From Magallana gigas (Eukaryota), in NCBI RefSeq assembly GCF_963853765.1, contig NC_088861.1, forward strand, positions 21,292,281 through 21,356,280: DNA of 64,000 nucleotides, read 5' to 3'. The number at the start of each line of letters is the position of its first letter. Within the stretch, counting starts at the first letter, position 1. Under the pieces are notes generated by a model. That model had not been told where the DNA came from, did no database searches, and saw only the letters and a program-made list of their open reading frames with translations. The position numbers and the translations under genes are program-made. Below are positions 11,768-45,530 of the stretch, piece after piece.

Positions 11768-11827
11768 CGATATCGGCAGTCTTACTCTCACAGTATCCTG
11801 AATCACGGCCTAAAAAATTGGGTGAAT
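11768..11827. other. Second copy of the non-satellite ~60 bp segment, copied as part of the 5.77 kb HOR; it differs from the first copy only by one fewer A in the A-run
   Basis: It is identical in sequence and monomer context to 6004-6063 and lies 5764 bp downstream. Confidence 0.7.
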
Positions 11828-14809
11828 AGGGCCACAGTAGGGGGATTAAGTTTTAAATAGGAATATAAAGAGAAAATCTGTAAACTTTCTTCTCAAAAAC
11901 TATGACGCCAGGAAAGCTCAAATTAAAATGAAAGCATCTTCAGGTAGTGTAAATTTTAGTTTGTTTAAATCATGGTCCCCGGAGGTAGGGTTGGGCCACA
12001 GTAGGGGGATCAAGTTTTACGTAGGAATATAAAGAGAAAATCTTTAAACTTTCTTCTCAAAAACTATGACGCCAGGAAAGCTCAAATTAAAATGGAAGAA
12101 TCCTCAGGTAGTGTAGATTTTAGTTTGTTCAAATCATGGTCCCCGGAGGTAGGGTTGGGCCACAGTAGGGGGATAAAGTTTTACATAGGAATATATAGAG
12201 AAAATCTGTAAACTTTCTTCTCAAAAACTATGACGCCAGGAAAGCTCAAATTAAAATGGAAGCATCCTCAGGAAGTGAATATTCTTGTTTGTTCAAATCA
12301 TGGCCCCCGGATGTAGGGTAGGGCAACAGTAGGGGGATCAAGTTTTACGTAGGAATATATATAGAGAAAATCTGTAAACTTTCTTCTCAAAAACTATGAC
12401 GCCAGGAAAGCTCAAATTAAAATGGAAGCATCCTCAGGTAGTGTAGATTTAAGTTTGTTCAAATCGTGGTCGACGGGGGTAGGGTTGGACAACAGTAGGG
12501 GGATCAACTTTTATTTAGGAATATATAGAGAAAATCTGTAAACTTTCTTCTCAAAAACTATGACGCCAGGAAAGCTCAAATTCAAATGGAAGCATCTTCA
12601 GGAAGTGAATATTCTTGTTTGTTCAAATTAAGGTCCCCCGGGGTAGGGTTGGGCCACAGTAGGGGGATCAAGTTTTACATAGGAGTATATAGAGAAAATC
12701 TTTAAACTTTCTTCTCAAAAACTATGACGCCAGGAAAGCTCAAATTAAAATGGAAGTATCCTCTGGTAGTGTAGATTTTAGTTTGTTCAAATCATGGTCC
12801 CCGGGGCTAGGGTTGGGCCACAGTAGGGGGATCAAGTTTTACATAGGAGTATATAGAGAAAATCTTTAAACTTTCTTCTCAAAAACTATGACGCCAGGAA
12901 AGCTCAAATTAAAATGGAAGTATCCTCTGGTAGTGTAGATTTTAGTTTGTTCAAATCATGGTCCCCGGGGCTAGGGTTGGGCCACAGTAGGGGGATCAAG
13001 TTTTACATAGGAATATATAGAGAACATTTTTAAACTTTATTCTCAAAAACTATGACGCCAGGAAAGCTCAAATTAAAATAGAAGCATCCTCAGGTAGTGA
13101 ATATTCTTGTTTGTTCAAATCATGGTCCCCGGGGGTAGGGTTGGGCCACAGTAGGGGGATCAAGTTTTACATAGGAATATATAGAGAAAATCTTTAAACT
13201 TTCTTCCCAAAAACTATGACGCCAGGAAAGCTCAAAATAAAACGGAAGCATCCTCAGAAAATGAATATTCTTGTTTGTTCAAATCATGGTCCCCGGGGGA
13301 AGGGATTGGCCACAGTAGGGGGATCAAGTTTTACATAGGAATATATAGAGAAAATCTGTAAACTTCTTCTCAAAAACTATGACGCCAGGAAAGCTCAAAT
13401 TAAAATGGAAGCATCCTCAGGAACTGAATATTCTTGTTTGTTCAAATTATGGTCCCTGGGGGTAGGGTTGGGCTACAGTAGGGGGATCAAGTTTTACATA
13501 GGAGTATATAGAGAAAATCTTTAAACTTTCTTCTCAAAAACTATGACACCAGAAAAGCCCAAATTAAAATGGAAGCATCCTCTGGTAGTGTAGATTTTAG
13601 TTTGTTCAAATCATGGTCCCCGGGGGTAGGGTTGGGCCACAGTAGGGGGATCAAGTTTTAAATAGGAATATAGAGAAAATTTTTAAACTTTCTTCTCAAA
13701 AATTATGACGCCAGGAAAGCTCAAAATAAAATGGAAGCATCCTCAGAAAGTGAATATTCTTGTTTGTTCAGATCATGGTCCCCGGGGGTAGGGATGGGCC
13801 ACAGTAGAGGGGTCAACTTTTACATAGGAATATATAGAGAAATCTGTAAACTTTCTTCTCAAAAACTATGACGCCAGGAAAGCTCAAATTAAAATGGAAG
13901 CATCCCCAGGAACTGAATATTCTTGTTTGTTCAAATTATGGTCCCCGGGGGTAGGGTTGGGCCACAGTAGGGGGATCAAGTTTTACATAGGAGTATATAG
14001 AGAAAATCTTTAAACTTTCTTCTCAAAAACTATGACACCAAAAAAGCCCAAATTAAAATGGAAGCATCCTCTGGTAGTGTAGATTTTAGTTTTTTCAAAT
14101 CATGGTCCCCGGGGCTAGGGTTGGGCCACAGTAGGGGGATCAAGTTTTACATAGGAATATATAGAGAAAATTTTTAAACTTTCTTCTCAAAAACTATGAC
14201 GCCAGGAAAGCTCAAATTAAAATGGAAGCATCCTCAGGAACTGAATATTCTTGTTTGTTCAAATCATGGTCCCCGGGGGTAGGGTTGGGCCACAGTAGGG
14301 GGATCAAGTTTTATATAGGAATATATAGAGAAAATCTTTAAACTTTCTTTTCAAAAACAATGACGCCAGTAAAGCTCAAATTAAAATGGAAGCATTCTCA
14401 GAAAGTGAATATTCTTGTTTGTTCAAATTATGGTCCCCGGGGGTAGGGTTGGGCAACAGTAGGGGGATCAACTTTTACATAGGAATATATAGAGAAAATC
14501 TTTGAACTTTCTTCCCAAAGACTATGACGCAAGGAAAGCTCAAATTAAAATGGAAGTATCCTCTGGTAGTGTAGATTTTTGTTTGTTCAAATCATGGTCC
14601 CCGGGGGTAGGGTTGGGCCACAGTAGGGGGATCAAGTTTTACATAGGAATATATAGAGAAAATCTTTAAACTTTCTTCTCAAAAACTATGACGCCAGGAA
14701 AGCTCAAATTAAAATGGAAGCATCCTCAGGTAGTGTAGATTTAAGTTTGTTCAAATCATGGTCCCCGGGGGTAGGTTTGGGCCACAGTAGGGGGATGAAG
14801 TTTTACATA

Positions 14810-17590
14810 GGAATATATAGAGAAAATCTGTAAACTTTCTTCTCAAAAACAATGACGCCAGGAAAGCTCAAATTCAAATGGAAGCATCCTCAGGTAATGT
14901 AGATTTTAGTTTGTTCAAATCATGGTCCCCGGGGGAAGGGTTGGGCCACAGTAGGGGGATCAAGTTTTACATAGGAATATATAGAGAAAATCTTTAAACT
15001 TTCTTCTCAAAAACTATGACGCCAGGAAAGCTCAAATTAAAATGGAAGCATCCTCAGGTAGTGTAGATTTTAGTTTGTTCAAATCATGGTCCCCGGGGGT
15101 AGGGTAGGGCCACAGTAGGGGGATCAAGTTTTACATAGAAATATATAGAGAAAATCTTTAGACTTTCTTCTAAAAAACTATGACGACAGGAAAGCTCAAA
15201 TTAAAATGGAAGCATCCTCAGGTAGGGTAGATTTTAGTTTGTTCAAATCATGGTCCCCGGGGGGTAGATTTGGGCCACAGTAGGGGGATCAAGTTTTACT
15301 TAGGAATATATAGAGAAAATCTTTAAACATTCATCAAAAAAACTATGACGCCAGGAAAGCTCAAATTAAAATGGAAGCATCCTCAGGTAGTGTAGATTTT
15401 CGTTTGTTCAAATCATGGTCCCCAGGGGTAGGGTAGGGCCACAGTAGGGGGATCAAGTTTTACATAGGAATATATAGAGAAAATCTGTCAACTTTCTTCT
15501 GAAAATCTATGACGCCAGTAAAGCTCAAATTAAAATGGAAGCATCCTCAGGTAGTATAGATTTTAGTTTGTTCAAATCATGGTCCCCGGGGGTAGAGTTG
15601 GGCCACAGTAGGGGGATCAAGTTTTACTTAGGAATATATACAGAAAATCTTTAAACTTTCTTCTCAAAAACTATGACGCCAGGAAAGCTCAAATTAAAAT
15701 GGAAGCATCCTCAGGTAGTGTAGATTTTAGTTTGTTCAAATCATGGTCCCCGGGGGTAGGGTAGGGCCACAGTAGGGGGATCAAGTTTTACATAGGAATA
15801 TAAAGAGAAAATCTGTAAACTTTCTTCTCAAAAACTATGACGCCAGGAAAGCTCAAATTCAAATGGAAGCATCCTCAGGAAGTGAATATTCTTGTTTGTT
15901 CAAATCATGGTCCCCGGATGTAGGGTAGGGCCACAGTAGGGGGATCAAGTTTTACATAGGAGTATAGAGAGAAAATCTTTAAACTTTCTTCTCAAAAACT
16001 ATGACGCCAGGAAAGCTCAAATTAAAATGGAAGAATCCTCAGGTAGTGTAGATTATAGTTTGTTCAAATCATGGTCCCCGGGGGTAGGGTAGGGCCACAG
16101 TAGGGGGATCAAGTTTTACATAGGAATATAAAGAGAAAATCTGTAAACTTTCTTCTCAAAAACTATGACGCCAGGAAAGCTCAAATTCAAATGGAAGCAT
16201 CCTCAGGAAGTGAATATTCTTGTTTGTTCAAATCATGGTCCCCGGATGTAGGGTAGGGCCACAGGAGGGGGATCAAGTTTTACATAGGAGTATAGAGAGA
16301 AAATCTTTAAACTTTCTTCTCAAAAACTATGACGCCAGGAAAGCTCAAATTAAAATGGAAGCATCCTCAGGTAGTGTAGATTTTAGTTTGTTCAAATCAT
16401 GGTCCCCGGAGGTAGGGTTGGGCCACAGTAGGGGGATCAAGTTTTACATAGGAATATATAGAGAAAATCTGTAAACTTTCTTCTCAAAAACTATGACGCC
16501 AGGAAAGCTCAAATTAAAATGGAAGCATCCTCAGGAAGTGAATATTCTTGTTTATTCAAATCATGGCCCCCGGATGTAGGGTAGGGCAACAGTAGGGGGA
16601 TCAAGTTTTACGTAGGAATATATATAGAGAAAATCTGTAAACTTTCTTCTCAAAAACTATGACGCCAGGAAAGCTCAAATTAAAATGGAAGCATCCTCAG
16701 GTAGTGTAGATTTAAGTTTGTTCAAATCGTGGTCGTCGGGGGTAGGGTTGGGCAACAGTAGGGGGATCAACTTTTATTTAGGAATATATAGAGAAAATCT
16801 GTAAACTTTCTTCTCAAAAACTATGACGCCAGGAAAGCTCAAATTCAAATGGAAGCATCCTCAGGAAGTGAATATTCTTGTTTGTTCAAATTAAGGTCCC
16901 CCGGGGTAGGGTTGGGCCACAGTAGGGGGATCAAGTTTTACATAGGAGTATATAGAGAAAATCTTTAAACTTTCTTCTCAAAAACTATGACGCCAGGAAA
17001 GCTCAAATTAAAATGGAAGTATCCTCTGGTAGTGTAGATTTTAGTTTGTTCAAATCATGGTCCCCGGGGGTAGGGTTGGGCCACAGTAGGGGGATCAAGT
17101 TTTACATAGGAATATATAGAGAACATTTTTAAACTTTCTTCTCAAAAACTATGACGCCAGGAAAGCTCAAATTAAAATAGAAGCATCCTCAGGAAGTGAA
17201 TATTCTTGTATGTTCAAATCATGGTCCCCGGGGGTAGGGTTGGGCCACAGTAGGGGGATCAAGTTTTACATAGGAATATATAGAGAAAATCTTTAAACTT
17301 TCTTCCCAAAAACTATGACGCCAGGAAAGCTCAAAATAAAACGGAAGCATCCTCAGAAAATGAATATTCTTGTTTGTTCAAATCATGGTCCCCGGGGGAA
17401 GGGATGGGCCACAGTAGGGGGATCAAGTTTTACATAGGAGTATATAGAGAAAATCTTTAAACTTTCTTCTCAAAAACTATGACACCAAAAAAGCCCAAAT
17501 TAAAATGGAAGCATCCTCTGGTAGTGTAGATTTTAGTTTGTTCAAATCATGGTCCCCGGGGCTAGGGTTGGGCCACAGTAGGGGGATCAA
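14810..17590. repeat. Duplicate of 1-2780
   Basis: See the paired feature 1-2780. Confidence 0.75.
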
Positions 17591-18978
17591 GTTTTACATA
17601 GGAATATATAGAGAACATTTTTAAACTTTCTTCTCAAAAACTATGACGCAAGGAAAGCTCAAATTAAAATGGAAGCATCCTCAGGAACTGAATATTCTTG
17701 TTTGTTCAAATCATGGTCCCCGGGGGTAGGGTTGGGCCACAGTAGGGGGATCAAGTTTTACATAGGAATATATAGAGAAAATCTTTAAACTTTCTTTTCA
17801 AAAACAATGACGCCAGTAAAGCTCAAATTAAAATGGAAGCATTCTCAGAAAGTGAATATTCTTGTTTGTTCAAATTATGGTCCCCGGGGGTAGGGTTGGG
17901 CCACAGTAGGGGGATCAAGTTTTACATAGGAATATATAGAGAAAATCTTTGAACTTTCTTCCCAAAGACTATGACGCAAGGAAAGCTCAAATTAAAATGG
18001 AAGTATCCTCTGGTAGTGTAGATTTTTGTTTGTTCAAATCATGGTCCCCGGGGGTAGGGTTGGGCCACAGTAGGGGGATCAAGTTTTACATAGGAATATA
18101 TAGAGAAAATCTTTAAACTTTCTTCTCAAAAACTATGACGCCAGGAAAGCTCAAATTAAAATAGAAGCATCCTCAGGTAGTGTAGATTTAAGTTTGTTCA
18201 AATCATGGTCCCCGGGGGTAGGTTTTGGCCACAGTAGGGGGATGAAGTTTTACATAGGAATATATAGAGAAAATCTGTAAACTTTCTTCTCAAAAACAAT
18301 GACGCCAGGAAAGCTCAAATTCAAATGGAAGCATCCTCAGGTAATGTAGATTTTAGTTTGTTCAAATCATGGTCCCCGGGGGAAGGGTTGGGCCACAGTA
18401 GGGGGATCAAGTTTTACATAGGAATATATAGAGAAAATCTTTAAACTTTCTTCTCAAAAACTATGACGCCAGGAAAGCTCAAATTAAAATGGAAGCATCC
18501 TCAGGTAGTGTAGATTTTAGTTTGTTCAAATCATGGTCCCCGGGGGTAGGGTAGGGCCACAGTAGGGGGATCAAGTTTTACATAGAAATATATAGAGAAA
18601 ATCTTTAGACTTTCTTCTAAAAAACTATGACGACAGGAAAACTCAAATTAAAATGGAAGCATCCTCAGGTAGGGTAGATTTTAGTTTGTTCAAATCATGG
18701 TCCCCGGGGGTAGATTTGGGCCACAGTAGGGGGATCAAGTTTTACTTAGGAATATATAGAGGAAATCTTTAAACATTCATCAAAAAAACTATGACGCCTG
18801 GAAAGCTCAAATTAAAATGGAAGCATCCTCAGGTAGTGTAGATTTTAGTTTGTTCAAATTATGGTCCCTGGATGTAGGGTAGGGCCACAGTATGGGGTTC
18901 AAGATTTACTTAGAGATATAGAGAAAATCTTTAAACTTTCTTCTCAAACACTATGACGCCAGGAAAGCTCAAATTAAA

Positions 18979-21900
18979 ATGGAAGCATCCTCAGGTAGTG
19001 TAGATTTTAGTTTGTTCAAATCATGGTCCCCAGGGGTAGGGTTGGGCCACAGTAGGGGGATCAAGTTTTACTTAGGAATATATAGAGAAAATCTTTATAC
19101 ATTCTTCGATAAAACTATGACGCCAGGAAAGCTCAAATTAAAATGGAAGCATCCTCAGGTAGTGTAGATTTTAGTTTGCACAGTAGGGGGATCAAGTTTT
19201 ACATAGGAATATATAGAGAAAATCTTTAAACTTTCTTCTCAAAAACTATGACGCCAGGAAAGCTCAAATTAAAATGGAAGCATCCTCAGGTAGTGTAGAT
19301 TTTAGTTTGTTCAAATCATGGTCCCCGGGGGTAGGGTAGGGCCACAGGTGGGGGATCAAGTTTTACATAGGAATATATAGAGAAAATCTGTAAACTTTCT
19401 TCTCAAAAACTATGACGCCAGGAAAGCTCAAATTCAAATGGAAGCATCCTCAGGAAGTGAATATTCTTGTTTGTTCAAATCATGGTCCCCGGATGTAGGG
19501 TAGGGCCACAGGAGGGGGATCAAGTTTTACATAGGAGTATAGAGAGAAAATCTTTAAACTTTCTTCTCAAAAACTATGACGCCAGGAAAGCTCAAATTAA
19601 AATGGAAGAATCCTCAGGTAGTGTAGATTTTAGTTTGTTCAAATCATGGTCCCCGGAGGTAGGGTTGGGCCACAGTAGGGGGATCAAGTTTTACATAGGA
19701 ATATATAGAGAAAATCTGTAAACTTTCTTCTCAAAAACTATGACGCCAGGAAAGCTCAAATTAAAATGGAAGCATCCTCAGGAAGTGAATATTCTTGTTT
19801 ATTCAAATCATGGCCCCCGGATGTAGGGTAGGGCAACAGTAGGGGGATCAAGTTTTACGTAGGAATATATATAGAGAAAATCTGTAAACTTTCTTCTCAA
19901 AAACTATGACGCCAGGAAAGCTCAAATTAAAATGGAAGCATCCTCAGGTAGTGTAGATTTAAGTTTGTTCAAATCGTGGTCGTCGGGGGTAGGGTTGGGC
20001 AACAGTAGGGGGATCAACTTTTATTTAGGAATATATAGAGAAAATCTGTAAACTTTCTTCTCAAAAACTATGACGCCAGGAAAGCTCAAATTCAAATGGA
20101 AGCATCCTCAGGAAGTGAATATTCTTGTTTGTTCAAATTAAGGTCCCCCGGGGTAGGGTTGGGCCACAGTAGGGGGATCAAGTTTTACATAGGAGTATAT
20201 AGAGAAAATCTTTAAACTTTCTTCTCAAAAACTATGACGCCAGGAAAGCTCAAATTAAAATGGAAGTATCCTCTGGTAGTGTAGATTTTAGTTTGTTCAA
20301 ATCATGGTCCCCGGGGGTAGGGTTGGGCCACAGTAGGGGGATCAAGTTTTACATAGCAATATATAGAGAACATTTTTAAACTTTCTCCTCAAAAACTATG
20401 ACGCCAGGAAAGCTCAAATTAAAATAGAAGCATCCTCAGGAAGTGAATATTCTTGTTTGTTCAAATCATGGTCCCCGGGGGTAGGGTTGGGCCACAGTAG
20501 GGGGATCAAGTTTTACATAGGAATATATAGAGAAAATCTTTAAACTTTCTTCCCAAAAACTATGACGCCAGGAAAGCTCAAAATAAAACGGAAGCATCCT
20601 CAGAAAATGAATATTCTTGTTTGTTCAAATCATGGTCCCCGGGGGGAGGGATGGGCCACAGTAGGGGGATCAAGTTTTACATAGGAGTATATAGAGAAAA
20701 TCTTTAAACTTTCTTCTCAAAAACTATGACACCAAAAAAGCCCAAATTAAAATGGAAGCATCCTCTGGTAGTGTAGATTTTAGTTTGTTCAAATCATGGT
20801 CCCCGGGGCTAGGGTTGGGCCACAGTAGGGGGATCAAGTTTTACATAGGAATATATAGAGAAAATTTTTAAACTTTCTTCTCAAAAACTATGACGCCAGG
20901 AAAGCTCAAATTAAAATGGAAGCATCCTCAGGAACTGAATATTCTTGTTTGTTCAAATCATGGTCCCCGGGGGTAGGGTTGGGCCACAGTAGGGGGATCA
21001 AGTTTTACATAGGAATATATAGAGAAAATCTTTAAACTTTCTTTTCAAAAACAATGACGCCAGTAAAGCTCAAATTAAAATGGAAGCATTCTCAGAAAGT
21101 GAATATTCTTGTTTGTTCAAATTATGGTCCCCGGGGGTAGGGTTGGGCCACAGTAGGGGGATCAAGTTTTACATAGGAATATATAGAGAAAATCTTTGAA
21201 CTTTCTTCCCAAAGACTATGACGCAAGGAAAGCTCAAATTAAAATGGAAGTATCCTCTGGTAGTGTAGATTTTTGTTTGTTCAAATCATGGTCCCCGGGG
21301 GTAGGGTTGGGCCACAGTAGGGGGATCAAGTTTTACATAGGAATATATAGAGAAAATCTTTAAACTTTCTTCTCAAAAACTATGACGCCAGGAAAGCTCA
21401 AATTAAAATAGAAGCATCCTCAGGTAGTGTAGATTTAAGTTTGTTTAAATCATGGTCCCCGGGGGTAGGTTTGGGCCACAGTAGGGGGATGAAGTTTTAC
21501 ATAGGAATATATAGAGAAAATCTGTAAACTTTCTTCTCAAAATCAATGACGCCAGGAAAGCTCAAATTCAATTGGAAGCATCCTCAGGTAATGTACATTT
21601 TAGTTTGTTCAAATCATGGTCCCCGGGGGAAGGGTTGGGCCACAGTAGGGGGATCAAGTTTTACATAGGAATATATAGAGAAAATCTTTAAACTTTCTTC
21701 TCAAAAACTATGACGCCAGGAAAGCTCAAATTAAAATGGAAGCATCCTCAGGTAGTGTAGATTTTAGTTTGTTCAAATCATGGTCCCCGGGGGTAGGGTT
21801 GGGCCACAGTAGGGGGATCAAGTTTTACATAGAAATATATAGAGAAAATCTTTAGACTTTCTTCTAAAAAACTATGACGCCAGGAAAGCTCAAATTAAAA

Positions 21901-24900: not shown

Positions 24901-25134
24901 CTTAGGAATATATAGAGGAAATCTTTAAACATTCATCAAAAAAACTATGACGCCTGGAAAGCTCAAATTAAAATGGAAGCATCCTCAGGTAGTGTAGATT
25001 TTAGTTTGTTCAAATTATGGTCCCTGGATGTAGGGTAGGGCCACAGTATGGGGTTCAAGATTTACTTAGAGATATAGAGAAAATCTTTAAACTTTCTTCT
25101 CAAACACTATGACGCCAGGAAAGCTCAAATTAAA
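18979..25134. repeat. Older copy of the 5.66 kb HOR family (6156 bp variant): one monomer is deleted before B2 and it has a longer tail
   Basis: Marker order is B1 18979, A 19467, G ~19981, B2 22062 (+3083 rather than +3247; a 164 bp monomer is missing at ~21852), C 22347, next B1 25135. Confidence 0.65.
19168..19200. repeat. Truncated monomer variant with a 33 bp internal deletion (AGTTTG|CACAGTAGGGGG, junction near 19178); a recurring HOR phase marker
   Basis: The 33 bp TTCAAATCATGGTCCCCGGGGGTAGGGTTGGGC is missing. The same junction recurs at about 22261, 25334, 27923, 30337, 33584, 38954, 42037, 45110, 46223, 49470, 51884, 55131, 57545 and 60792. A subset (22261, 27923, 33584, 42037, 49470, 55131, 60792) carries a further ~10 bp deletion (GATCAAGG|AATATATAG). 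Confidence 0.85.
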
Positions 25135-33100: not shown

Positions 33101-34190
33101 TCATGGTCCCCGGGGGTAGATTTGGGCCACAGTAGGGGGATCAAGTTTTACTTAGGAATATATAGAGAAAATCTTTAAACATTCATCAAAAAAACTATGA
33201 CGCCAGGAAAGCTCAAATTAAAATGGAAGCATCCTCAGGTAGTGTAGATTTTAGTTTGTTCAAATTATGGTCCCTGGATGTAGGGTAGGGCCACAGTATG
33301 GGGTTCAAGATTTACTTAGAGATATAGAGAAAATCTTTAAACTTTCTTCTCAAACACTATGACGCCAGGAAAGCTCAAATTAAAATGGAAGCATCCTCAG
33401 GTAGTGTAGATTTTAGTTTGTTCAAATCATGGTCCCCAGGGGTAGGGTTGGGCCACAGTAGGGGGATCAAGTTTTACTTAGGAATATATAGAGAAAATCT
33501 TTATACATTCTTCGATAAAACTATGACGCCAGGAAAGCTCAAATTAAAATGGAAGCATCCTCAGGTAGTGTAGATTTTAGTTTGCACAGTAGGGGGATCA
33601 AGGAATATATAGAGAAAATCTGTAAACTTTCTTCTCAAAAACTATGACGCCAGGAAAGCTCAAATTAAAATGGAAGCATCCTCAGGTAGTGTAGGTTTTA
33701 ATTTGTTCAAATCATGGTCCCTGGGGGTAGGGTTGGGCCACAGTAGAGGGATCAAGTTTTTCATAGGAATATATAGAGAAAATCTTTCAACTTTCTTCTC
33801 AAAAACTATGGCGCCAGGAAAGCTCAAATTAAAATGGAAGCATCCTCAGGTAGAGTAGATTTTAGTTTGTTCAAATCATGGTCCCCGGGGGTAGGTTTGG
33901 GCCACAGTAGGGGGTTCAACTTTTACATAGGAATATATAGAGAAAATCTTTAAACTTTCTTCTCAAAAACTATGACGCCAGGAAAGCTCAAATTAAAATG
34001 GAAGCATCCTCAGGTAGTGTAAATTTTAGTTTGTTCAAATCATGGTCCCCGGGGGTAGGGTTGGGCCACAGTAGGGGGATCAAGTTTTACATAAGAATAT
34101 ATAGAGAAAATCTGTAAACTTTCTTTTCAAAAACTATGACGCCAGGAAAGCTCAAATTAAAATGGAAGCATTCTCAGAAAGTGAATATTC
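30138..34190. repeat. HOR family copy truncated at the segmental-duplication junction
   Basis: B1 30138, A 30626, B2 33385 (+3247) and C 33670 sit at canonical offsets. A recombinant junction at ~34190 replaces the D/E part of the unit. 27724-34190 matches 49271-55737 at an offset of 21547. Confidence 0.65.
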
Positions 34191-37100
34191 TTGTTTGTTC
34201 AAATTATGGTCCCCGGGGGTAGGGTTGGGCAACAGTAGGGGGATCAACTTTTACATAGGAATATATAGAGAAAATCTTTGAACTTTCTTCCCAAAGACTA
34301 TGACGCAAGGAAAGCTCAAATTAAAATGGAAGTATCCTCTGGTAGTGTAGATTTTTGTTTGTTCAAATCATGGTCCCCGGGGGTAGGGTTGGGCCACAGT
34401 AGGGGGATCAAGTTTTACATAGGAATATATAGAGAAAATCTTTAAACTTTCTTCTCAAAAACTATGACGCCAGGAAAGCTCAAATTAAAATGGAAGCATC
34501 CTCAGGTAGTGTAGATTTAAGTTTGTTCAAATCATGGTCCCCGGGGGTAGGTTTGGGCCACAGTAGGGGGATGAAGTTTTACATAGGAATATATAGAGAA
34601 AATCTGTAAACTTTCTTCTCAAAAACAATGACGCCAGGAAAGCTCAAATTCAAATGGAAGCATCCTCAGGTAATGTAGATTTTAGTTTGTTCAAATCATG
34701 GTCCCCGGGGGAAGGGTTGGGCCACAGTAGGGGAATCAAGTTTTACATAGGAATATATAGAGAAAATCTTTAAACTTTCTTCTCAAAAACTATGACGCCA
34801 GGAAAGCTCAAATTAAAATGGAAGCATCCTCAGGTAGTGTAGATTTTAGTTTGTTCAAATCATGGTCCCCGGGGGTAGGGTAGGGCCACAGTAGGGGGAT
34901 CAAGTTTTACATAGAAATATATAGAGAAAATCTTTAGACTTTCTTCTAAAAAACTATGACGACAGGAAAGCTCAAATTAAAATGGAAGCATCCTCAGGTA
35001 GGGTAGATTTTAGTTTGTTCAAATCATGGTCCCCGGGGGGTAGATTTGGGCCACAGTAGGGGGATCAAGTTTTACTTAGGAATATATAGAGAAAATCTTT
35101 AAACATTCATCAAAAAAACTATGACGCCAGGAAAGCTCAAATTAAAATGGAAGCATCCTCAGGTAGTGTAGATTTTCGTTTGTTCAAATCATGGTCCCCA
35201 GGGGTAGGGTAGGGCCACAGTAGGGGGATCAAGTTTTACATAGGAATATATAGAGAAAATCTGTCAACTTTCTTCTGAAAATCTATGACGCCAGTAAAGC
35301 TCAAATTAAAATGGAAGCATCCTCAGGTAGTATAGATTTTAGTTTGTTCAAATCATGGTCCCCGGGGGTAGAGTTGGGCCACAGTAGGGGGATCAAGTTT
35401 TACTTAGGAATATATACAGAAAATCTTTAAACTTTCTTCTCAAAAACTATGACGCCAGGAAAGCTCAAATTAAAATGGAAGCATCCTCAGGTAGTGTAGA
35501 TTTTAGTTTGTTCAAATCATGGTCCCCGGGGGTAGGGTAGGGCCACAGTAGGGGGATCAAGTTTTACATAGGAATATAAAGAGAAAATCTGTAAACTTTC
35601 TTCTCAAAAACTATGACGCCAGGAAAGCTCAAATTCAAATGGAAGCATCCTCAGGAAGTGAATATTCTTGTTTGTTCAAATCATGGTCCCCGGATGTAGG
35701 GTAGGGCCACAGTAGGGGGATCAAGTTTTACATAGGAGTATAGAGAGAAAATCTTTAAACTTTCTTCTCAAAAACTATGACGCCAGGAAAGCTCAAATTA
35801 AAATGGAAGAATCCTCAGGTAGTGTAGATTATAGTTTGTTCAAATCATGGTCCCCGGGGGTAGGGTAGGGCCACAGTAGGGGGATCAAGTTTTACATAGG
35901 AATATAAAGAGAAAATCTGTAAACTTTCTTCTCAAAAACTATGACGCCAGGAAAGCTCAAATTCAAATGGAAGCATCCTCAGGAAGTGAATATTCTTGTT
36001 TGTTCAAATCATGGTCCCCGGATGTAGGGTAGGGCCACAGGAGGGGGATCAAGTTTTACATAGGAGTATAGAGAGAAAATCTTTAAACTTTCTTCTCAAA
36101 AACTATGACGCCAGGAAAGCTCAAATTAAAATGGAAGCATCCTCAGGTAGTGTAGATTTTAGTTTGTTCAAATCATGGTCCCCGGAGGTAGGGTTGGGCC
36201 ACAGTAGGGGGATCAAGTTTTACATAGGAATATATAGAGAAAATCTGTAAACTTTCTTCTCAAAAACTATGACGCCAGGAAAGCTCAAATTAAAATGGAA
36301 GCATCCTCAGGAAGTGAATATTCTTGTTTATTCAAATCATGGCCCCCGGATGTAGGGTAGGGCAACAGTAGGGGGATCAAGTTTTACGTAGGAATATATA
36401 TAGAGAAAATCTGTAAACTTTCTTCTCAAAAACTATGACGCCAGGAAAGCTCAAATTAAAATGGAAGCATCCTCAGGTAGTGTAGATTTAAGTTTGTTCA
36501 AATCGTGGTCGTCGGGGGTAGGGTTGGGCAACAGTAGGGGGATCAACTTTTATTTAGGAATATATAGAGAAAATCTGTAAACTTTCTTCTCAAAACCTAT
36601 GACGCCAGGAAAGCTCAAATTCAAATGGAAGCATCCTCAGGAAGTGAATATTCTTGTTTGTTCAAATTAAGGTCCCCCGGGGTAGGGTTGGGCCACAGTA
36701 GGGGGATCAAGTTTTACATAGGAGTATATAGAGAAAATCTTTAAACTTTCTTCTCAAAAACTATGACGCCAGGAAAGCTCAAATTAAAATGGAAGTATCC
36801 TCTGGTAGTGTAGATTTTAGTTTGTTCAAATCATGGTCCCCGGGGGTAGGGTTGGGCCACAGTAGGGGGATCAAGTTTTACATAGGAATATATAGAGAAC
36901 ATTTTTAAACTTTCTTCTCAAAAACTATGACGCCAGGAAAGCTCAAATTAAAATAGAAGCATCCTCAGGAAGTGAATATTCTTGTATGTTCAAATCATGG
37001 TCCCCGGGGGTAGGGTTGGGCCACAGTAGGGGGATCAAGTTTTACATAGGAATATATAGAGAAAATCTTTAAACTTTCTTCCCAAAAACTATGACGCCAG

Positions 37101-40100
37101 GAAAGCTCAAAATAAAACGGAAGCATCCTCAGAAAATGAATATTCTTGTTTGTTCAAATCATGGTCCCCGGGGGAAGGGATGGGCCACAGTAGGGGGATC
37201 AAGTTTTACATAGGAGTATATAGAGAAAATCTTTAAACTTTCTTCTCAAAAACTATGACACCAAAAAAGCCCAAATTAAAATGGAAGCATCCTCTGGTAG
37301 TGTAGATTTTAGTTTGTTCAAATCATGGTCCCCGGGGCTAGGGTTGGGCCACAGTAGGGGGATCAAGTTTTACATAGGAATATATAGAGAACATTTTTAA
37401 ACTTTCTTCTCAAAAACTATGACGCAAGGAAAGCTCAAATTAAAATGGAAGCATCCTCAGGAACTGAATATTCTTGTTTGTTCAAATCATGGTCCCCGGG
37501 GGTAGGGTTGGGCCACAGTAGGGGGATCAAGTTTTACATAGGAATATATAGAGAAAATCTTTAAACTTTCTTTTCAAAAACAATGACGCCAGTAAAGCTC
37601 AAATTAAAATGGAAGCATTCTCAGAAAGTGAATATTCTTGTTTGTTCAAATTATGGTCCCCGGGGGTAGGGTTGGGCCACAGTAGGGGGATCAAGTTTTA
37701 CATAGGAATATATAGAGAAAATCTTTGAACTTTCTTCCCAAAGACTATGACGCAAGGAAAGCTCAAATTAAAATGGAAGTATCCTCTGGTAGTGTAGATT
37801 TTTGTTTGTTCAAATCATGGTCCCCGGGGGTAGGGTTGGGCCACAGTAGGGGGATCAAGTTTTACATAGGAATATATAGAGAAAATCTTTAAACTTTCTT
37901 CTCAAAAACTATGACGCCAGGAAAGCTCAAATTAAAATAGAAGCATCCTCAGGTAGTGTAGATTTAAGTTTGTTCAAATCATGGTCCCCGGGGGTAGGTT
38001 TTGGCCACAGTAGGGGGATGAAGTTTTACATAGGAATATATAGAGAAAATCTGTAAACTTTCTTCTCAAAAACAATGACGCCAGGAAAGCTCAAATTCAA
38101 ATGGAAGCATCCTCAGGTAATGTAGATTTTAGTTTGTTCAAATCATGGTCCCCGGGGGAAGGGTTGGGCCACAGTAGGGGGATCAAGTTTTACATAGGAA
38201 TATATAGAGAAAATCTTTAAACTTTCTTCTCAAAAACTATGACGCCAGGAAAGCTCAAATTAAAATGGAAGCATCCTCAGGTAGTGTAGATTTTAGTTTG
38301 TTCAAATCATGGTCCCCGGGGGTAGGGTAGGGCCACAGTAGGGGGATCAAGTTTTACATAGAAATATATAGAGAAAATCTTTAGACTTTCTTCTAAAAAA
38401 CTATGACGACAGGAAAACTCAAATTAAAATGGAAGCATCCTCAGGTAGGGTAGATTTTAGTTTGTTCAAATCATGGTCCCCGGGGGTAGATTTGGGCCAC
38501 AGTAGGGGGATCAAGTTTTACTTAGGAATATATAGAGGAAATCTTTAAACATTCATCAAAAAAACTATGACGCCTGGAAAGCTCAAATTAAAATGGAAGC
38601 ATCCTCAGGTAGTGTAGATTTTAGTTTGTTCAAATTATGGTCCCTGGATGTAGGGTAGGGCCACAGTATGGGGTTCAAGATTTACTTAGAGATATAGAGA
38701 AAATCTTTAAACTTTCTTCTCAAACACTATGACGCCAGGAAAGCTCAAATTAAAATGGAAGCATCCTCAGGTAGTGTAGATTTTAGTTTGTTCAAATCAT
38801 GGTCCCCAGGGGTAGGGTTGGGCCACAGTAGGGGGATCAAGTTTTACTTAGGAATATATAGAGAAAATCTTTATACATTCTTCGATAAAACTATGACGCC
38901 AGGAAAGCTCAAATTAAAATGGAAGCATCCTCAGGTAGTGTAGATTTTAGTTTGCACAGTAGGGGGATCAAGTTTTACATAGGAATATATAGAGAAAATC
39001 TTTAAACTTTCTTCTCAAAAACTATGACGCCAGGAAAGCTCAAATTAAAATGGAAGCATCCTCAGGTAGTGTAGATTTTAGTTTGTTCAAATCATGGTCC
39101 CCGGGGGTAGGGTAGGGCCACAGGTGGGGGATCAAGTTTTACATAGGAATATATAGAGAAAATCTGTAAACTTTCTTCTCAAAAACTATGACGCCAGGAA
39201 AGCTCAAATTCAAATGGAAGCATCCTCAGGAAGTGAATATTCTTGTTTGTTCAAATCATGGTCCCCGGATGTAGGGTAGGGCCACAGGAGGGGGATCAAG
39301 TTTTACATAGGAGTATAGAGAGAAAATCTTTAAACTTTCTTCTCAAAAACTATGACGCCAGGAAAGCTCAAATTAAAATGGAAGAATCCTCAGGTAGTGT
39401 AGATTTTAGTTTGTTCAAATCATGGTCCCCGGAGGTAGGGTTGGGCCACAGTAGGGGGATCAAGTTTTACATAGGAATATATAGAGAAAATCTGTAAACT
39501 TTCTTCTCAAAAACTATGACGCCAGGAAAGCTCAAATTAAAATGGAAGCATCCTCAGGAAGTGAATATTCTTGTTTATTCAAATCATGGCCCCCGGATGT
39601 AGGGTAGGGCAACAGTAGGGGGATCAAGTTTTACGTAGGAATATATATAGAGAAAATCTGTAAACTTTCTTCTCAAAAACTATGACGCCAGGAAAGCTCA
39701 AATTAAAATGGAAGCATCCTCAGGTAGTGTAGATTTAAGTTTGTTCAAATCGTGGTCGTCGGGGGTAGGGTTGGGCAACAGTAGGGGGATCAACTTTTAT
39801 TTAGGAATATATAGAGAAAATCTGTAAACTTTCTTCTCAAAAACTATGACGCCAGGAAAGCTCAAATTCAAATGGAAGCATCCTCAGGAAGTGAATATTC
39901 TTGTTTGTTCAAATTAAGGTCCCCCGGGGTAGGGTTGGGCCACAGTAGGGGGATCAAGTTTTACATAGGAGTATATAGAGAAAATCTTTAAACTTTCTTC
40001 TCAAAAACTATGACGCCAGGAAAGCTCAAATTAAAATGGAAGTATCCTCTGGTAGTGTAGATTTTAGTTTGTTCAAATCATGGTCCCCGGGGGTAGGGTT

Positions 40101-43100
40101 GGGCCACAGTAGGGGGATCAAGTTTTACATAGCAATATATAGAGAACATTTTTAAACTTTCTTCTCAAAAACTATGACGCCAGGAAAGCTCAAATTAAAA
40201 TAGAAGCATCCTCAGGAAGTGAATATTCTTGTTTGTTCAAATCATGGTCCCCGGGGGTAGGGTTGGGCCACAGTAGGGGGATCAAGTTTTACATAGGAAT
40301 ATATAGAGAAAATCTTTAAACTTTCTTCCCAAAAACTATGACGCCAGGAAAGCTCAAAATAAAACGGAAGCATCCTCAGAAAATGAATATTCTTGTTTGT
40401 TCAAATCATGGTCCCCGGGGGGAGGGATGGGCCACAGTAGGGGGATCAAGTTTTACATAGGAGTATATAGAGAAAATCTTTAAACTTTCTTCTCAAAAAC
40501 TATGACACCAAAAAAGCCCAAATTAAAATGGAAGCATCCTCTGGTAGTGTAGATTTTAGTTTGTTCAAATCATGGTCCCCGGGGCTAGGGTTGGGCCACA
40601 GTAGGGGGATCAAGTTTTACATAGGAATATATAGAGAAAATTTTTAAACTTTCTTCTCAAAAACTATGACGCCAGGAAAGCTCAAATTAAAATGGAAGCA
40701 TCCTCAGGAACTGAATATTCTTGTTTGTTCAAATCATGGTCCCCGGGGGTAGGGTTGGGCCACAGTAGGGGGATCAAGTTTTACATAGGAATATATAGAG
40801 AAAATCTTTAAACTTTCTTTTCAAAAACAATGACGCCAGTAAAGCTCAAATTAAAATGGAAGCATTCTCAGAAAGTGAATATTCTTGTTTGTTCAAATTA
40901 TGGTCCCCGGGGGTAGGGTTGGGCCACAGTAGGGGGATCAAGTTTTACATAGGAATATATAGAGAAAATCTTTGAACTTTCTTCCCAAAGACTATGACGC
41001 AAGGAAAGCTCAAATTAAAATGGAAGTATCCTCTGGTAGTGTAGATTTTTGTTTGTTCAAATCATGGTCCCCGGGGGTAGGGTTGGGCCACAGTAGGGGG
41101 ATCAAGTTTTACATAGGAATATATAGAGAAAATCTTTAAACTTTCTTCTCAAAAACTATGACGCCAGGAAAGCTCAAATTAAAATAGAAGCATCCTCAGG
41201 TAGTGTAGATTTAAGTTTGTTTAAATCATGGTCCCCGGGGGTAGGTTTGGGCCACAGTAGGGGGATGAAGTTTTACATAGGAATATATAGAGAAAATCTG
41301 TAAACTTTCTTCTCAAAATCAATGACGCCAGGAAAGCTCAAATTCAATTGGAAGCATCCTCAGGTAATGTACATTTTAGTTTGTTCAAATCATGGTCCCC
41401 GGGGGAAGGGTTGGGCCACAGTAGGGGGATCAAGTTTTACATAGGAATATATAGAGAAAATCTTTAAACTTTCTTCTCAAAAACTATGACGCCAGGAAAG
41501 CTCAAATTAAAATGGAAGCATCCTCAGGTAGTGTAGATTTTAGTTTGTTCAAATCATGGTCCCCGGGGGTAGGGTTGGGCCACAGTAGGGGGATCAAGTT
41601 TTACATAGAAATATATAGAGAAAATCTTTAGACTTTCTTCTAAAAAACTATGACGCCAGGAAAGCTCAAATTAAAATGGAAGCATCCTCAGGTAGTGTAG
41701 ATTTTAGTTTGTTCAAATTATGGTCCCTGGATGTAGGGTAGGGCCACAGTATGGGGTTCAAGATTTACTTAGAGATATAGAGAAAATCTTTAAACTTTCT
41801 TCTCAAACACTATGACGCCAGGAAAGCTCAAATTAAAATGGAAGCATCCTCAGGTAGTGTAGATTTTAGTTTGTTCAAATCATGGTCCCCAGGGGTAGGG
41901 TTGGGCCACAGTAGGGGGATCAAGTTTTACTTAGGAATATATAGAGAAAATCTTTATACATTCTTCGATAAAACTATGACGCCAGGAAAGCTCAAATTAA
42001 AATGGAAGCATCCTCAGGTAGTGTAGATTTTAGTTTGCACAGTAGGGGGATCAAGGAATATATAGAGAAAATCTTTAAACTTTCTTCTCAAAAACTATGA
42101 CGCCAGGAAAGCTCAAATTAAAATGGAAGCATCCTCAGGTAGTGTAGGTTTTAATTTGTTCAAATCATGGTCCCCGGGGGTAGGGTTGGGCCACAGTAGA
42201 GGGATCAAGTTTTTCATAGGAATATATAGAGAAAATCTTTCAACTTTCTTCTCAAAAACTATGGCGCCAGGAAAGCTCAAATTAAAATGGAAGCATCCTC
42301 AGATAGAGTAGATTTTAGTTTGTTCAAATCATGGTCCCCGGGGGTAGGTTTGGGCCACAGTAGGGGGTTCAACTTTTACATAGGAATATATAGAGAAAAT
42401 CTTTAAACTTTCTTCTCAAAAACTATGACGCCAGGAAAGCTCAAATTAAAATGGAAGCATCCTCAGGAAGTGAATATTCTTGTTTATTCAAATCATGGCC
42501 CCCGGATGTAGGGTAGGGCAACAGTAGGGGGATCAAGTTTTACGTAGGAATATATATAGAGGAAATCTGTAAACTTTCTTCTCAAAAACTATGACGCCAG
42601 GAAAGCTCAAATTAAAATGGAAGCATCCTCAGGTAGTGTAGATTTAAGTTTGTTCAAATCGTGGTCGTCGGGGGTAGGGTTGGGCAACAGTAGGGGGATC
42701 AACTTTTATTTAGGAATATATAGAGAAAATCTGTAAACTTTCTTCTCAAAAACTATGACGCCAGGAAAGCTCAAATTCAAATGGAAGCATCCTCAGGAAG
42801 TGAATATTCTTGTTTGTTCAAATTAAGGTCCCCCGGGGTAGGGTTGGGCCACAGTAGGGGGATCAAGTTTTACATAGGAGTATATAGAGAAAATCTTTAA
42901 ACTTTCTTCTCAAAAACTATGACGCCAGGAAAGCTAAAATTAAAATGGAAGTATCCTCTGGTAGTGTAGATTTTAGTTTGTTCAAATCATGGTCCCCGGG
43001 GGTAGGGTTGGGCCACAGTAGGGGGATCAAGTTTTACATAGGAATATATAGAGAACATTTTTAAACTTTCTTCTCAAAAACTATGACGCCAGGAAAGCTC

Positions 43101-45530
43101 AAATTAAAATAGAAGCATCCTCAGGAAGTGAATATTCTTGTATGTTCAAATCATGGTCCCCGGGGGTAGGGTTGGGCCACAGTAGGGGGATCAAGTTTTA
43201 CATAGGAATATATAGAGAAAATCTTTAAACTTTCTTCCCAAAAACTATGACGCCAGGAAAGCTCAAAATAAAACGGAAGCATCCTCAGAAAATGAATATT
43301 CTTGTTTGTTCAAATCATGGTCCCCGGGGGAAGGGATGGGCCACAGTAGGGGGATCAAGTTTTACATAGGAGTATATAGAGAAAATCTTTAAACTTTCTT
43401 CTCAAAAACTATGACACCAAAAAAGCCCAAATTAAAATGGAAGCATCCTCTGGTAGTGTAGATTTTAGTTTGTTCAAATCATGGTCCCCGGGGCTAGGGT
43501 TGGGCCACAGTAGGGGGATCAAGTTTTACATAGGAATATATAGAGAAAATTTTTAAACTTTCTTCTCAAAAACTATGACGCAAGGAAAGCTCAAATTAAA
43601 ATGGAAGCATCCTCAGGAACTGAATATTCTTGTTTGTTCAAATCATGGTCCCCGGGGGTAGGGTTGGGCCACAGTAGGGGGATCAAGTTTTACATAGGAA
43701 TATATAGAGAAAATCTTTAAACTTTCTTTTCAAAAACAATGACGCCAGTAAAGCTCAAATTAAAATGGAAGCATTCTCAGAAAGTGAATATTCTTGTTTG
43801 TTCAAATTATGGTCCCCGGGGGTAGGGTTGGGCCACAGTAGGGGGATCAAGTTTTACATAGGAATATATAGAGAAAATCTTTGAACTTTCTTCCCAAAGA
43901 CTATGACGCAAGGAAAGCTCAAATTAAAATGGAAGTATCCTCTGGTAGTGTAGATTTTTGTTTGTTCAAATCATGGTCCCCGGGGGTAGGGTTGGGCCAC
44001 AGTAGGGGGATCAAGTTTTACATAGGAATATATAGAGAAAATCTTTAAACTTTCTTCTCAAAAACTATGACGCCAGGAAAGCTCAAATTAAAATAGAAGC
44101 ATCCTCAGGTAGTGTAGATTTAAGTTTGTTCAAATCATGGTCCCCGGGGGTAGGTTTTGGCCACAGTAGGGGGATGAAGTTTTACATAGGAATATATAGA
44201 GAAAATCTGTAAACTTTCTTCTCAAAAACAATGACGCCAGGAAAGCTCAAATTCAAATGGAAGCATCCTCAGGTAATGTAGATTTTAGTTTGTTCAAATC
44301 ATGGTCCCCGGGGGAAGGGTTGGGCCACAGTAGGGGGATCAAGTTTTACATAGGAATATATAGAGAAAATCTTTAAACTTTCTTCTCAAAAACTATGACG
44401 CCAGGAAAGCTCAAATTAAAATGGAAGCATCCTCAGGTAGTGTAGATTTTAGTTTGTTCAAATCATGGTCCCCGGGGGTAGGGTAGGGCCACAGTAGGGG
44501 GATCAAGTTTTACATAGAAATATATAGAGAAAATCTTTAGACTTTCTTCTAAAAAACTATGACGACAGGAAAACTCAAATTAAAATGGAAGCATCCTCAG
44601 GTAGGGTAGATTTTAGTTTGTTCAAATCATGGTCCCCGGGGGTAGATTTGGGCCACAGTAGGGGGATCAAGTTTTACTTAGGAATATATAGAGGAAATCT
44701 TTAAACATTCATCAAAAAAACTATGACGCCTGGAAAGCTCAAATTAAAATGGAAGCATCCTCAGGTAGTGTAGATTTTAGTTTGTTCAAATTATGGTCCC
44801 TGGATGTAGGGTAGGGCCACAGTATGGGGTTCAAGATTTACTTAGAGATATAGAGAAAATCTTTAAACTTTCTTCTCAAACACTATGACGCCAGGAAAGC
44901 TCAAATTAAAATGGAAGCATCCTCAGGTAGTGTAGATTTTAGTTTGTTCAAATCATGGTCCCCAGGGGTAGGGTTGGGCCACAGTAGGGGGATCAAGTTT
45001 TACTTAGGAATATATAGAGAAAATCTTTATACATTCTTCGATAAAACTATGACGCCAGGAAAGCTCAAATTAAAATGGAAGCATCCTCAGGTAGTGTAGA
45101 TTTTAGTTTGCACAGTAGGGGGATCAAGTTTTACATAGGAATATATAGAGAAAATCTGTAAACTTTCTTCTCAAAAACTATGACGCCAGGAAAGCTCAAA
45201 TTAAAATGGAAGCATCCTCAGGTAGTGTAGATTTTAGTTTGTTCAAATCATGGTCCCCGGGGGTAGGGTAGGGCCACAGGTGGGGGATCAAGTTTTACAT
45301 AGGAATATATAGAGAAAATCTGTAAACTTTCTTCTCAAAAACTATGACGCCAGGAAAGCTCAAATTCAAATGGAAGCATCCTCAGGAAGTGAATATTCTT
45401 GTTTGTTCAAATCATGGTCCCCGGATGTAGGGTAGGGCCACAGGAGGGGGATCAAGTTTTACATAGGAGTATAGAGAGAAAATCTTTAAACTTTCTTCTC
45501 AAAAACTATGACGCCAGGAAAGCTCAAATT
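34190..45530. repeat. Segmental duplication, copy 2: duplicate of 14410-25750
   Basis: Same evidence as copy 1. The left junction at ~34190-34200 lies inside the conserved stretch ATTCTCAGAAAGTGAATATTCTTGTTTGTTCAAAT, where sequence of the 28500 type (AAATCATGG) switches to sequence of the 14400 type (AAATTATGG). The right junction at ~45530 is where GAAGCATCCTCAGGTAGTG replaces GAAGTATCCTCTGGTAGTG. Confidence 0.85.

Follow-up and report, generated by a model that had tools for sequence, protein, structure and literature searches.

The Cg170 or HindIII satellite of Crassostrea (Magallana) gigas was reportedly described in Clabby 1996 and Lopez-Flores 2004, and the unequal crossover model of tandem-repeat evolution, against which satellites of this kind can be read, is said to go back to Smith 1976. 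The Cg170 family is also carried by related oysters, e.g., C. angulata. One of its subfamilies is CgiSat01a (Tunjic-Cvitanic 2021, PMC8268682). Helentrons, a group of elements that replicate by a rolling-circle process, include non-autonomous members whose central repeats are Cg170 monomers (PMC7492417, PMC8268682), and the oyster satellite literature stresses the short arrays borne by these elements (PMC8268682, PMC11136912, PMC7348941, PMC7492417). Such Helentron-borne arrays (Cg_HINE or pearl elements) average ~6 monomers, hold 89 at most, and have Helentron ends as their flanks (PMC7492417). FISH has placed Cg170 at the centromeres of some oyster chromosomes, and its enrichment in CenH3 ChIP is weak (PMC7348941). 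A term search of PMC8268682, PMC11136912, PMC7348941, and PMC7492417 found no mention of higher-order structure, and a literature search for telomere-to-telomere or centromere higher-order analyses of oysters returned nothing relevant.

The longest standalone Cg170 array reported in these papers has 232 monomers (~40 kb, with a gap inside), whereas the window analyzed here, a single stretch of 64,000 bp, holds at least 394 monomers organized in three nested levels. The window shares its monomer family with the Helentron-borne arrays but lacks their flanks. With human alpha satellite and Arabidopsis CEN180 it shares repeat units that are more alike (98–100%) than the monomers within them (92.4%), as well as multi-kb near-identical blocks that are nested in an older, diverged array and have in-register junctions. 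It differs from both in that the sequence is unrelated, and any centromere function of the array is putative. Monomers within a unit diverge by ~8% in the window, as compared with the 20–40% that is typical of alpha satellite.

Identity and nested structure of the array

The whole window is one continuous, unidirectional, head-to-tail array of 394 monomers of ~164 bp each and is free of any N. TRF reported a 164-bp period over the entire window, and the spacing between anchors was exactly 164 bp in 331 of the 393 intervals. The window consensus agreed with the reverse complement of the published CgiSat01a consensus, which was taken from the supplement of PMC8268682, at 162 of 164 positions; the local alignment score was 160 for CgiSat01a vs. 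104 for CgiSat01b, the latter match being far weaker. The AT content of the array (~61%) is as in Cg170. Head-to-tail monomers of ~164–166 bp, together with identity to the published consensus, make this a Cg170 array of the CgiSat01a subfamily. The historical hallmark of one HindIII site per monomer is absent, as AAGCTT occurs a single time in the window (8287) and AAGCTC 357 times; this scarcity is no argument against membership in CgiSat01a because the published consensus carries the same GAGCTT. The orientation of the published consensus corresponds to the minus strand of the window.

No Helentron flank, other non-satellite sequence, or interruption was seen across the 64 kb, and the window contained no inverted repeats of at least 60 bp. 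A coding or RNA function was rejected, given that no ORF in the window exceeds 84 aa, the longest one opening with TTG, and that an Rfam search of 14000–35000 returned zero matches. Searches with monomer substrings in the main texts of the literature gave unrelated matches only, and the core of an odd 185/184-bp monomer was absent from the CgiSat supplement.

Three levels of repetition are nested in the array: a 20-monomer repeat, a 35-monomer repeat of 5,661 bp, and a duplication of 122/133 monomers, with nested array periodicities of 3,247 and 5,661 bp. The canonical copy of the 35-monomer repeat (Table 1) has tandem neighbors starting at 46162 and 57484, such that three consecutive copies run from 46162. 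Mean monomer identity within this unit is 92.4% and tandem copies of the unit are 98.97% to 100% identical; the units are more alike than the monomers inside them, which is the mark of a higher-order repeat. In the window as a whole, monomer pairs average 92.2% identity, and in-register older higher-order copies are 98.0–99.5% identical. Several multi-kb pairs are nearly identical, the largest being the 11,394-bp pair described below; others are 50220–56296 and 55881–61957 (1 mismatch) and 28673–34204 and 55881–61412 (0 mismatches). The ~20-kb duplication is thus one layer of a nested higher-order structure, not a singular feature.

Anatomy of the ~20-kb duplication

The duplication spans 14371–55693 and consists of two tandem copies, U1 and U2, of a ~20-kb unit comprising ~125 repeat units. 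The copies are adjacent, in the same orientation, and without a spacer, U1 ending at 34146 and U2 starting at 34147. Aligned bases are identical at 19,771 of 19,776 positions, leaving five substitutions and one in-register indel of 1,771 bp, which bears out the proposal of an earlier note on this DNA that a unit of ~19.8 kb had been duplicated as a block. That note had called 14410–25750 and 34190–45530 near-identical; both ranges lie inside an ungapped alignment of 11,394 bp at an offset of 19,776 with 3 mismatches (14958, 16820, 20387). The identity exceeds the array background, and chance is ruled out because it is far above that of both the monomers and the older higher-order copies. The copy-specific indels described earlier are likewise shared: the length-variant monomers at 15180 through 25273 (spacings of 165, 166, 162, 131, 166, 162, 121, 166, 162, and 131 bp) each recur exactly 19,776 bp downstream.

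Just beyond the 11,394-bp block, identity at the same offset drops to ~91%, after which the register is lost. The earlier note had placed the end of the duplication here, near 25750/45530, and had regarded the intervening 8.4 kb as related but distinct. Both readings have to be revised, as this boundary is instead a secondary 1,771-bp indel with a 26-bp window, and the 8.4 kb beyond it has its own twin at an offset of 21,547 with 2 substitutions (25969, 34067), the second copy lying past the 45530 at which the event was thought to end. The two tails carry an identical ordered succession of higher-order variants. Two private transitions (46861, 47285) fall inside the segment found only in U2. 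The 26-bp crossover window of the indel adjoins a perfect 1,113-bp tandem duplication in U2, whose own junction window is 66 bp long (45475–45540), and a further abrupt breakpoint lies between 2803 and 2804; in view of these nearby junctions and this breakpoint, in-register exchanges recur in the array.

Table 1. Coordinates of the satellite array, the duplicated copies, and their junctions, numbered from the first base of the window
Feature	Position	Strand	Details
Cg170/HindIII satellite array, subfamily CgiSat01a	1–64000	-	164-bp period and consensus match
U1, first copy of duplicated unit	14371–34146		19,776 bp, 122 monomers
U2, second copy of duplicated unit	34147–55693		21,547 bp, 133 monomers
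Left block of the earlier note	14371–25764		Partner 34147–45540, 3 substitutions
Right block of the earlier note	34147–45540		Partner 14371–25764
U1 tail	25739–34204		Matches 47286–55751 at offset 21,547; 2 substitutions
U2 tail	47286–55751		Partner of 25739–34204; beyond the range of the earlier note
Hybrid monomer, sole novel junction	34136–34299		Four-way alignment; 70-mer unique in window
Downstream parental monomer, X/U1 boundary	14360–14523		Native context
Upstream parental monomer, U2/Y boundary	55683–55846		Native context of 5,661-bp repeat
U2-only segment	45541–47311		1,771 bp, 11 monomers, absent from U1; placement ambiguous by 26 bp
Crossover window of the putative U1 deletion (1,771 bp or 658 bp)	25739–25764		26 bp; "right junction" of the earlier note
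Local tandem duplication in U2, 1,113 bp	44362–46653		Perfect: 44362–45540 = 45475–46653, 0 mismatches
Canonical 5,661-bp, 35-monomer higher-order repeat copy	51823–57483		Includes two truncated monomers (131 and 121 bp)

The duplication has a single hybrid junction, and both of its outer boundaries are native. The hybrid monomer begins, at its 5' end, like the upstream parent and continues, toward its 3' end, like the downstream parent. The sequence switch reported earlier for this left junction is present, but the shared stretch, somewhere within which the switch lies, is 58 bp long (34147–34204, identical in the hybrid and both parental monomers) and not 35 bp. Diagnostic bases flank this stretch at 34146 (G) and 34205 (T), and at 34205 the sequence changes from AAATCATGG (upstream-type parent) to AAATTATGG. 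The hybrid 70-mer at 34141–34210 occurs once in the window, as compared with 4 and 13 occurrences for the versions found in the two parents. For ~1.3 kb around the join, the local alignment of the parents is ~93–95% identical, and the 58-bp switch tract is the fourth-longest perfect tract in this alignment, after tracts of 86, 66, and 66 bp. At the upstream edge of the duplication, an older paralog at 7860–9990 (offset 4,940, ~99% identity) continues unbroken through 14371; at the downstream edge, the match between 50220–56296 and 55881–61957 passes straight through 55683–55846, and a copy of the 5,661-bp repeat spans 55751. An exact-pattern scan of metagenome_contigs and genome_contigs left the hybrid 70-mer, a truncated-monomer marker, and the commonest 30-mer all unmatched, which for the hybrid 70-mer is uninformative because both sets are devoid of Cg170.

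The five substitutions between U1 and U2 are all private and derived, three in U2 and two in U1, and such differences in both copies are expected after a duplication. All five are shifts of a homopolymer boundary (X^n Y^m to X^n-1 Y^m+1), a class that makes up ~12% (41/352) of the older differences, and four fall in columns that are invariant among the other 330 monomers. Conversion from other monomers and mis-mapped polishing were rejected as sources for four of the five, whose derived alleles have no other occurrence in the window. Over 19.8 kb, the copies never differ by a 1-bp indel. The pattern suggests that the five differences are possible consensus errors, in which case U1 and U2 would perhaps be truly identical, as may fit a duplication that happened very recently or, equally, a path that was duplicated during assembly.

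Origin of the duplication

The best explanation for U1 and U2 is probably an unequal homologous exchange. The copies are direct and adjacent, one in-register hybrid repeat joins them, the switch falls in a tract of perfect shared identity, and both parents are retained. These features are common to the window and the model of Smith 1976, with which the window data present no conflict, and the homology-driven misaligned exchange proposed in the earlier note draws its support from the same single hybrid, the 58-bp identical tract, and the retained parents. Under such an exchange, a monomer of the type now at 55683–55846 would have mispaired, on chromatids or homologs, with one of the type now at 14360–14523 some ~120–130 monomers away, and the exchange would have been resolved inside the 58 bp that are identical between the two, yielding an X-U-U-Y arrangement with the hybrid monomer at the boundary between the two copies of U. 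A later in-register exchange would then have shortened U1 by 11 monomers (1,771 bp); another possibility is that U1 lost 658 bp and that 1,113 bp were duplicated in U2. The outcome would be array expansion and the spread of higher-order variants (concerted evolution), with no gene function. We infer the mechanism of recombination, the order of events, and the fidelity of the assembly from the DNA as assembled, and sister-chromatid exchange, meiotic unequal crossover between homologs, and replication-based template switching would be inseparable on that basis. The duplication has the form that textbooks give for misaligned recombination, and there is nothing unusual about its biology.

An unlikely competitor is an assembly artefact, in which the assembler placed side by side either two haplotype versions of one locus, distinguished by the 1,771-bp indel, or one locus through which it had passed two times. 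The route may have been a spurious overlap of paralogous monomers, which would make the hybrid monomer a chimeric consensus. Such an error is favored by the nature of satellite arrays, which no other regions surpass in difficulty of assembly, and by the high heterozygosity of oysters; the junction, however, contains no N or gap. The copies differ by only one structural variant and five substitutions, the latter all of a form typical of consensus errors, yet the complete lack of 1-bp indels over 19.8 kb speaks against a poor consensus. The parental identity of ~93–95% for ~1.3 kb at the join could mislead an overlapper working on noisy reads, and a false join within a satellite would likewise produce a clean in-register hybrid monomer; on the other hand, a haplotype bubble can end up as a tandem repeat only by way of a graph edge that true reads would not supply, and several other in-register near-identical duplications and junctions in the window give the array this architecture independently of the join at issue.

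Two further routes have a very small probability each. Long-tract gene conversion, by which two older paralogous units of ~20 kb would have been equalized with no change in copy number, is a known means of homogenization in tandem arrays and yields near-identity with sharp ends, but a conversion tract requires two novel boundaries and here there is only one, the other two being native; moreover, a tract of ~20 kb would be exceptionally long. About as improbable is a circle-mediated origin, in which U was excised between the parental monomer types, copied by rolling circle, and reintegrated by homology, possibly in connection with Helentrons. A circle of this kind would bear exactly the hybrid junction that was observed, and Cg170 is associated with rolling-circle Helentrons (PMC7492417, PMC8268682); nonetheless, no Helentron flank or non-satellite sequence is present in the 64 kb, the circles are without direct evidence, and the simpler unequal exchange fully explains the two copies. 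A regular 19.8-kb higher-order repeat with many copies at a stable long period, for which the nested 3,247- and 5,661-bp periodicities might speak, has next to no likelihood and is refuted within the window, where a third copy at that period is absent both up- and downstream, ungapped identity is at the random level upstream (28.5%, 1–14370 vs. +19,776) and downstream (32.1%, 34147–42446 vs. 55694–63993), and divergence starts exactly at the junction.

Implications for oyster satellites

The conceptual gain from an unequal exchange at this locus is small because the satellite has been described before and the mechanism is a standard one. The unusual form shared by the five point differences calls for caution about the quality of the consensus where satellite copies are nearly identical. 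We attach only slight credence to a bolder possibility, that the 20-kb unit was amplified from an excised circle by Helentron rolling-circle replication, or, more mildly, that the homogenized ~48-kb core (14.4–62 kb) with its three nested levels represents an actively expanding oyster centromere. If true, the circle route would tie transposon replication to the growth of long higher-order satellite arrays, and with the expanding core an architecture layered in this way would have been described for the first time in a mollusc. What the window displays is that long Cg170 arrays can have a nested higher-order organization, here a 20-mer, a 35-mer, and a 122/133-monomer duplication, and the hybrid 70-mer and the 1,771-bp indel provide markers for assembly correctness and for copy-number polymorphism among oysters.

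Identity and composition of the array

A 164-bp period runs across all 64,000 bases, which by TRF and autocorrelation form one tandem array. The anchor motif occurs 394 times, with 331 of the 393 spacings being exactly 164 bp, and the consensus of 331 full-length monomers agrees at 162 of 164 positions with the reverse-complemented sequence of CgiSat01a, the Pacific oyster Cg170/HindIII satellite subfamily with 164-bp monomers (PMC8268682; reference sequence from its Data S1). Mean pairwise identity among monomers in the window was 92.2%, and identity to the consensus was ~95% with no gradient along the window. GC content (~39%) and strand skew are likewise even, the strand asymmetry being strong and uniform (GC skew ~+0.18, AT skew ~+0.09). 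Neither inverted repeats of at least 60 bp nor open reading frames (ORFs) longer than 84 aa were found across the window, and the searched stretch 14000-35000 returned no Rfam match; the window is thus non-coding satellite DNA in a single orientation, and the lack of such inverted repeats indicates that neither inversion nor insertion of foreign DNA has disturbed the run of 394 monomers. Cg170 was absent from the metagenome and prokaryotic genome collections searched.

The HindIII site that gave the satellite its name (AAGCTT) is present once in 64 kb, at 8287; in 357 monomers its counterpart is AAGCTC, matching the published CgiSat01a consensus; CCCGGG (SmaI-type) occurs 258 times. An 84-aa, TTG-initiated ORF was seen 10 times at one higher-order-repeat position (1413-1667, 16220-16474, 19467-19721, and seven more) and most likely reflects a frame left open by chance within one monomer variant. 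Two aberrant monomers, 5954-6138 (185 bp) and 11718-11901 (184 bp), lie 5,764 bp apart and have ~70 bp of their core swapped for an unrelated sequence, CGATATCGGCAGTCTTACTCTCACAGTATCCTGAATCACGGCCTAAAAAAATTGGGTGAA, which matched none of the satellite consensus sequences published for C. gigas.

Two adjacent copies of a 20-kb unit

The earlier note had described 14410-25750 and 34190-45530 as near-identical down to copy-specific indels, and both observations held. The two segments lie inside an ungapped match of 11,394 bp between 14371-25764 and 34147-45540 (offset 19,776) with three mismatches, and the monomer length variants of the left block (spacings of 165, 166, and 162 bp; truncated monomers of 131 and 121 bp) are all mirrored 19,776 bp downstream. 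Older higher-order copies compared in register within the window reach 98.0-99.5% identity, so the near-identity of the blocks is far above the array background, that of single monomers included, and cannot be chance. The 8.4-kb segment between them, which the earlier note had called related but distinct, proved to have an identical partner of its own: when all diagonals were scanned, 25970-34066 matched 47517-55613 with no mismatches, and with two substitutions (25969, 34067) the match grows to 25739-34204 against 47286-55751 (offset 21,547), monomer variants following in identical ordered succession in both tails. U1 and U2 are therefore adjacent copies of one whole unit, in whose alignment all 19,776 bases of U1 are placed, at the cost of five substitutions and one gap of 1,771 bp. 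Duplication of a ~19.8-kb unit as a block thus stands, and the proposed right junction (25750/45530) is not its end, as the duplication continues past 25764/45540.

Coordinates of the duplicated unit, its differences, and the repeat landmarks
Feature	Coordinates	Size	Remarks
U1, left copy	14371-34146	19,776 bp	122 monomers
U2, right copy	34147-55693	21,547 bp	133 monomers
Mismatches within the 11,394-bp block	14958, 16820, 20387		
Five differences (U1/U2)	14958/34734, 16820/36596, 20387/40163, 25969/47516, 34067/55614		
Local tandem duplication	44362-45540 = 45475-46653	1,113 bp	perfect; junction window 66 bp
131-bp monomers	19117, 25273, 30276, 38893, 45049, 46162, 51823, 57484	131 bp	
121-bp monomers	22200, 27862, 33523, 41976, 49409, 55070, 60731	121 bp	
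Level 1: 20-monomer blocks and shortened derivatives		3,247 bp	~98-99% alike
Level 2: 35-monomer repeat (20-monomer + 15-monomer block)	tandem from 46162 onward	5,661 bp	copies 98.97-100% identical
Level 3, top layer: U1/U2 duplication			

The gap is an indel: as far as 25764, U1 pairs with U2 at two offsets, 19,776 and 20,889, and from 25739 on it pairs at offset 21,547, the window common to these matches being 26 bp (25739-25764). The sequence present in U2 and not in U1 (45541-47311; 1,771 bp, 11 monomers) comprises the perfect local tandem duplication and four further monomers (658 bp). Set against the canonical repeat, U1 has lost 658 bp and U2 has 1,113 bp duplicated; in the other possible history, the ancestor of both copies was U2-like and U1 shed 1,771 bp in a single step. 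Private transitions within the U2-only segment, at 46861 (C to T, CCCCC to CCTCC) and 47285 (CpG to TpG), argue that it was not recently copied from elsewhere in the window, which favours an ancestral segment lost from U1. Under both histories the indel events are secondary exchanges, in register and similar in kind to the main one.

All five U1/U2 substitutions are private and derived when judged against the other paralogs (three in U2, two in U1); four fall in columns where the other 330 full-length monomers do not vary, and the k-mers that hold their derived bases have no other occurrence in the window. All five are also homopolymer-boundary shifts, X^n Y^m to X^n-1 Y^m+1 (e.g., GGGGGA to GGGGAA), a form taken by 41 of 352 (~12%) older differences with matching flanks and, by our own reading of the pair list, by about one of eleven older variable sites common to U1 and U2. 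Unlike the transitions at 46861 and 47285, which look like genuine mutations, the five may stem from consensus error or else from dislocation-type errors of replication, and the copies may in truth be 100% identical; we therefore rest no age estimate on them.

The hybrid junction and its origin

Four-way alignment showed that through 34204 the sequence at 34 kb equals the canonical copies found at 55 and 61 kb, and that from 34147 onward it equals the sequence from 14371 onward, with an overlap of 58 bp (34147-34204) that is the same in both parents. Diagnostic bases delimit this tract on either side: 34146 is G here and T in the downstream parental monomer, and 34205 is T here and C in the upstream one, the latter being the switch from AAATCATGG to AAATTATGG. 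A left junction inside a shared stretch, with this switch downstream, had been proposed at ~34190; it was recovered, with a longer tract than the 35 bp first given. Within the window, the hybrid 70-mer 34141-34210 is unique, against four occurrences of the version seen in the upstream parent and 13 of that in the downstream parent. In local alignment of the parental contexts, which are ~93-95% identical, the 58-bp tract ranks fourth among perfect tracts (after 86, 66, and 66 bp). The outer boundaries of the duplication are native: an older paralog at 7860-9990 (offset 4,940, ~99% identity) is continuous through 14371, and the match of 50220-56296 to 55881-61957 is continuous through 55751.

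One novel in-register hybrid junction together with two retained parental monomers matches exactly a tandem duplication by unequal homologous exchange, which we consider the best explanation and a probable one; such an exchange within the array would have doubled the ~20-kb unit and left the hybrid monomer at the U1-U2 border. Sister-chromatid exchange, exchange between homologs, and template switching are inseparable by sequence. The mechanism favoured in the earlier note is thereby supported, its anatomy having been incomplete. The main rival, an assembly mis-join or haplotype duplication, appears improbable: a false join in satellite DNA would likewise give a clean hybrid monomer, and the error-like form of the five differences fits, but the junction is without a gap, 1-bp indel differences are absent over 19.8 kb, and several other junctions of the same style lie within the window. 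Long-tract gene conversion, which would leave two novel boundaries against the one here, is unlikely, as is circle-mediated amplification. A regular 19.8-kb period is unlikely too, a third copy at that period being absent (ungapped identity of 28.5% upstream and 32.1% downstream, the random level).

Nested structure and its place among oyster satellites

The truncated monomers serve as landmarks that mark the boundaries of the 20-monomer blocks. Eight 131-bp monomers are without 33 bp, TTCAAATCATGGTCCCCGGGGGTAGGGTTGGGC, a deletion that takes out the monomer's only GC-rich palindromic core, GGTCCCCGGGGG; seven 121-bp monomers carry the same deletion and a further 10-bp loss, and are therefore probably derived from the 131-bp type. 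Nearly the whole span 14371-61957 has partners at ≥99.9% identity. The flanks of this homogenised core, 2804-14370 and 61958-64000, have best partners at only 93.7-99.7% and are of greater age and heterogeneity; the left one has its own looser period of ~5,764 bp. Positions 1-2803 equal 14808-17610 (offset 14,807) with two mismatches in 2,803 bp. The match breaks off abruptly at 2803|2804; in the other direction this additional near-identical copy of the unit's head extends past the left edge, which implies further recent duplications beyond the window. Given this copy and the near-identical partners across the core, the U1/U2 duplication is the largest among several similar events and not singular. 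Such nesting is what long satellite arrays ordinarily show (Smith 1976; human alpha satellite), and its mechanism is textbook; the oyster array resembles human alpha satellite in this respect.

Cg170/HindIII is the most abundant oyster satellite and lies mostly in short arrays within Helentrons. FISH signals place it at the centromeres of 4-7 of the 10 chromosome pairs, with weak CenH3 ChIP enrichment (PMC7348941), and the longest standalone array reported has 232 monomers (PMC8268682). Higher-order repeats for Cg170 are not mentioned in the oyster satellite literature consulted (PMC8268682, PMC11136912, PMC7348941, PMC7492417), and the nested structure may therefore be previously undescribed. 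The duplication itself is a fresh instance of a known phenomenon, the behaviour of satellite arrays and the mechanism being already established.
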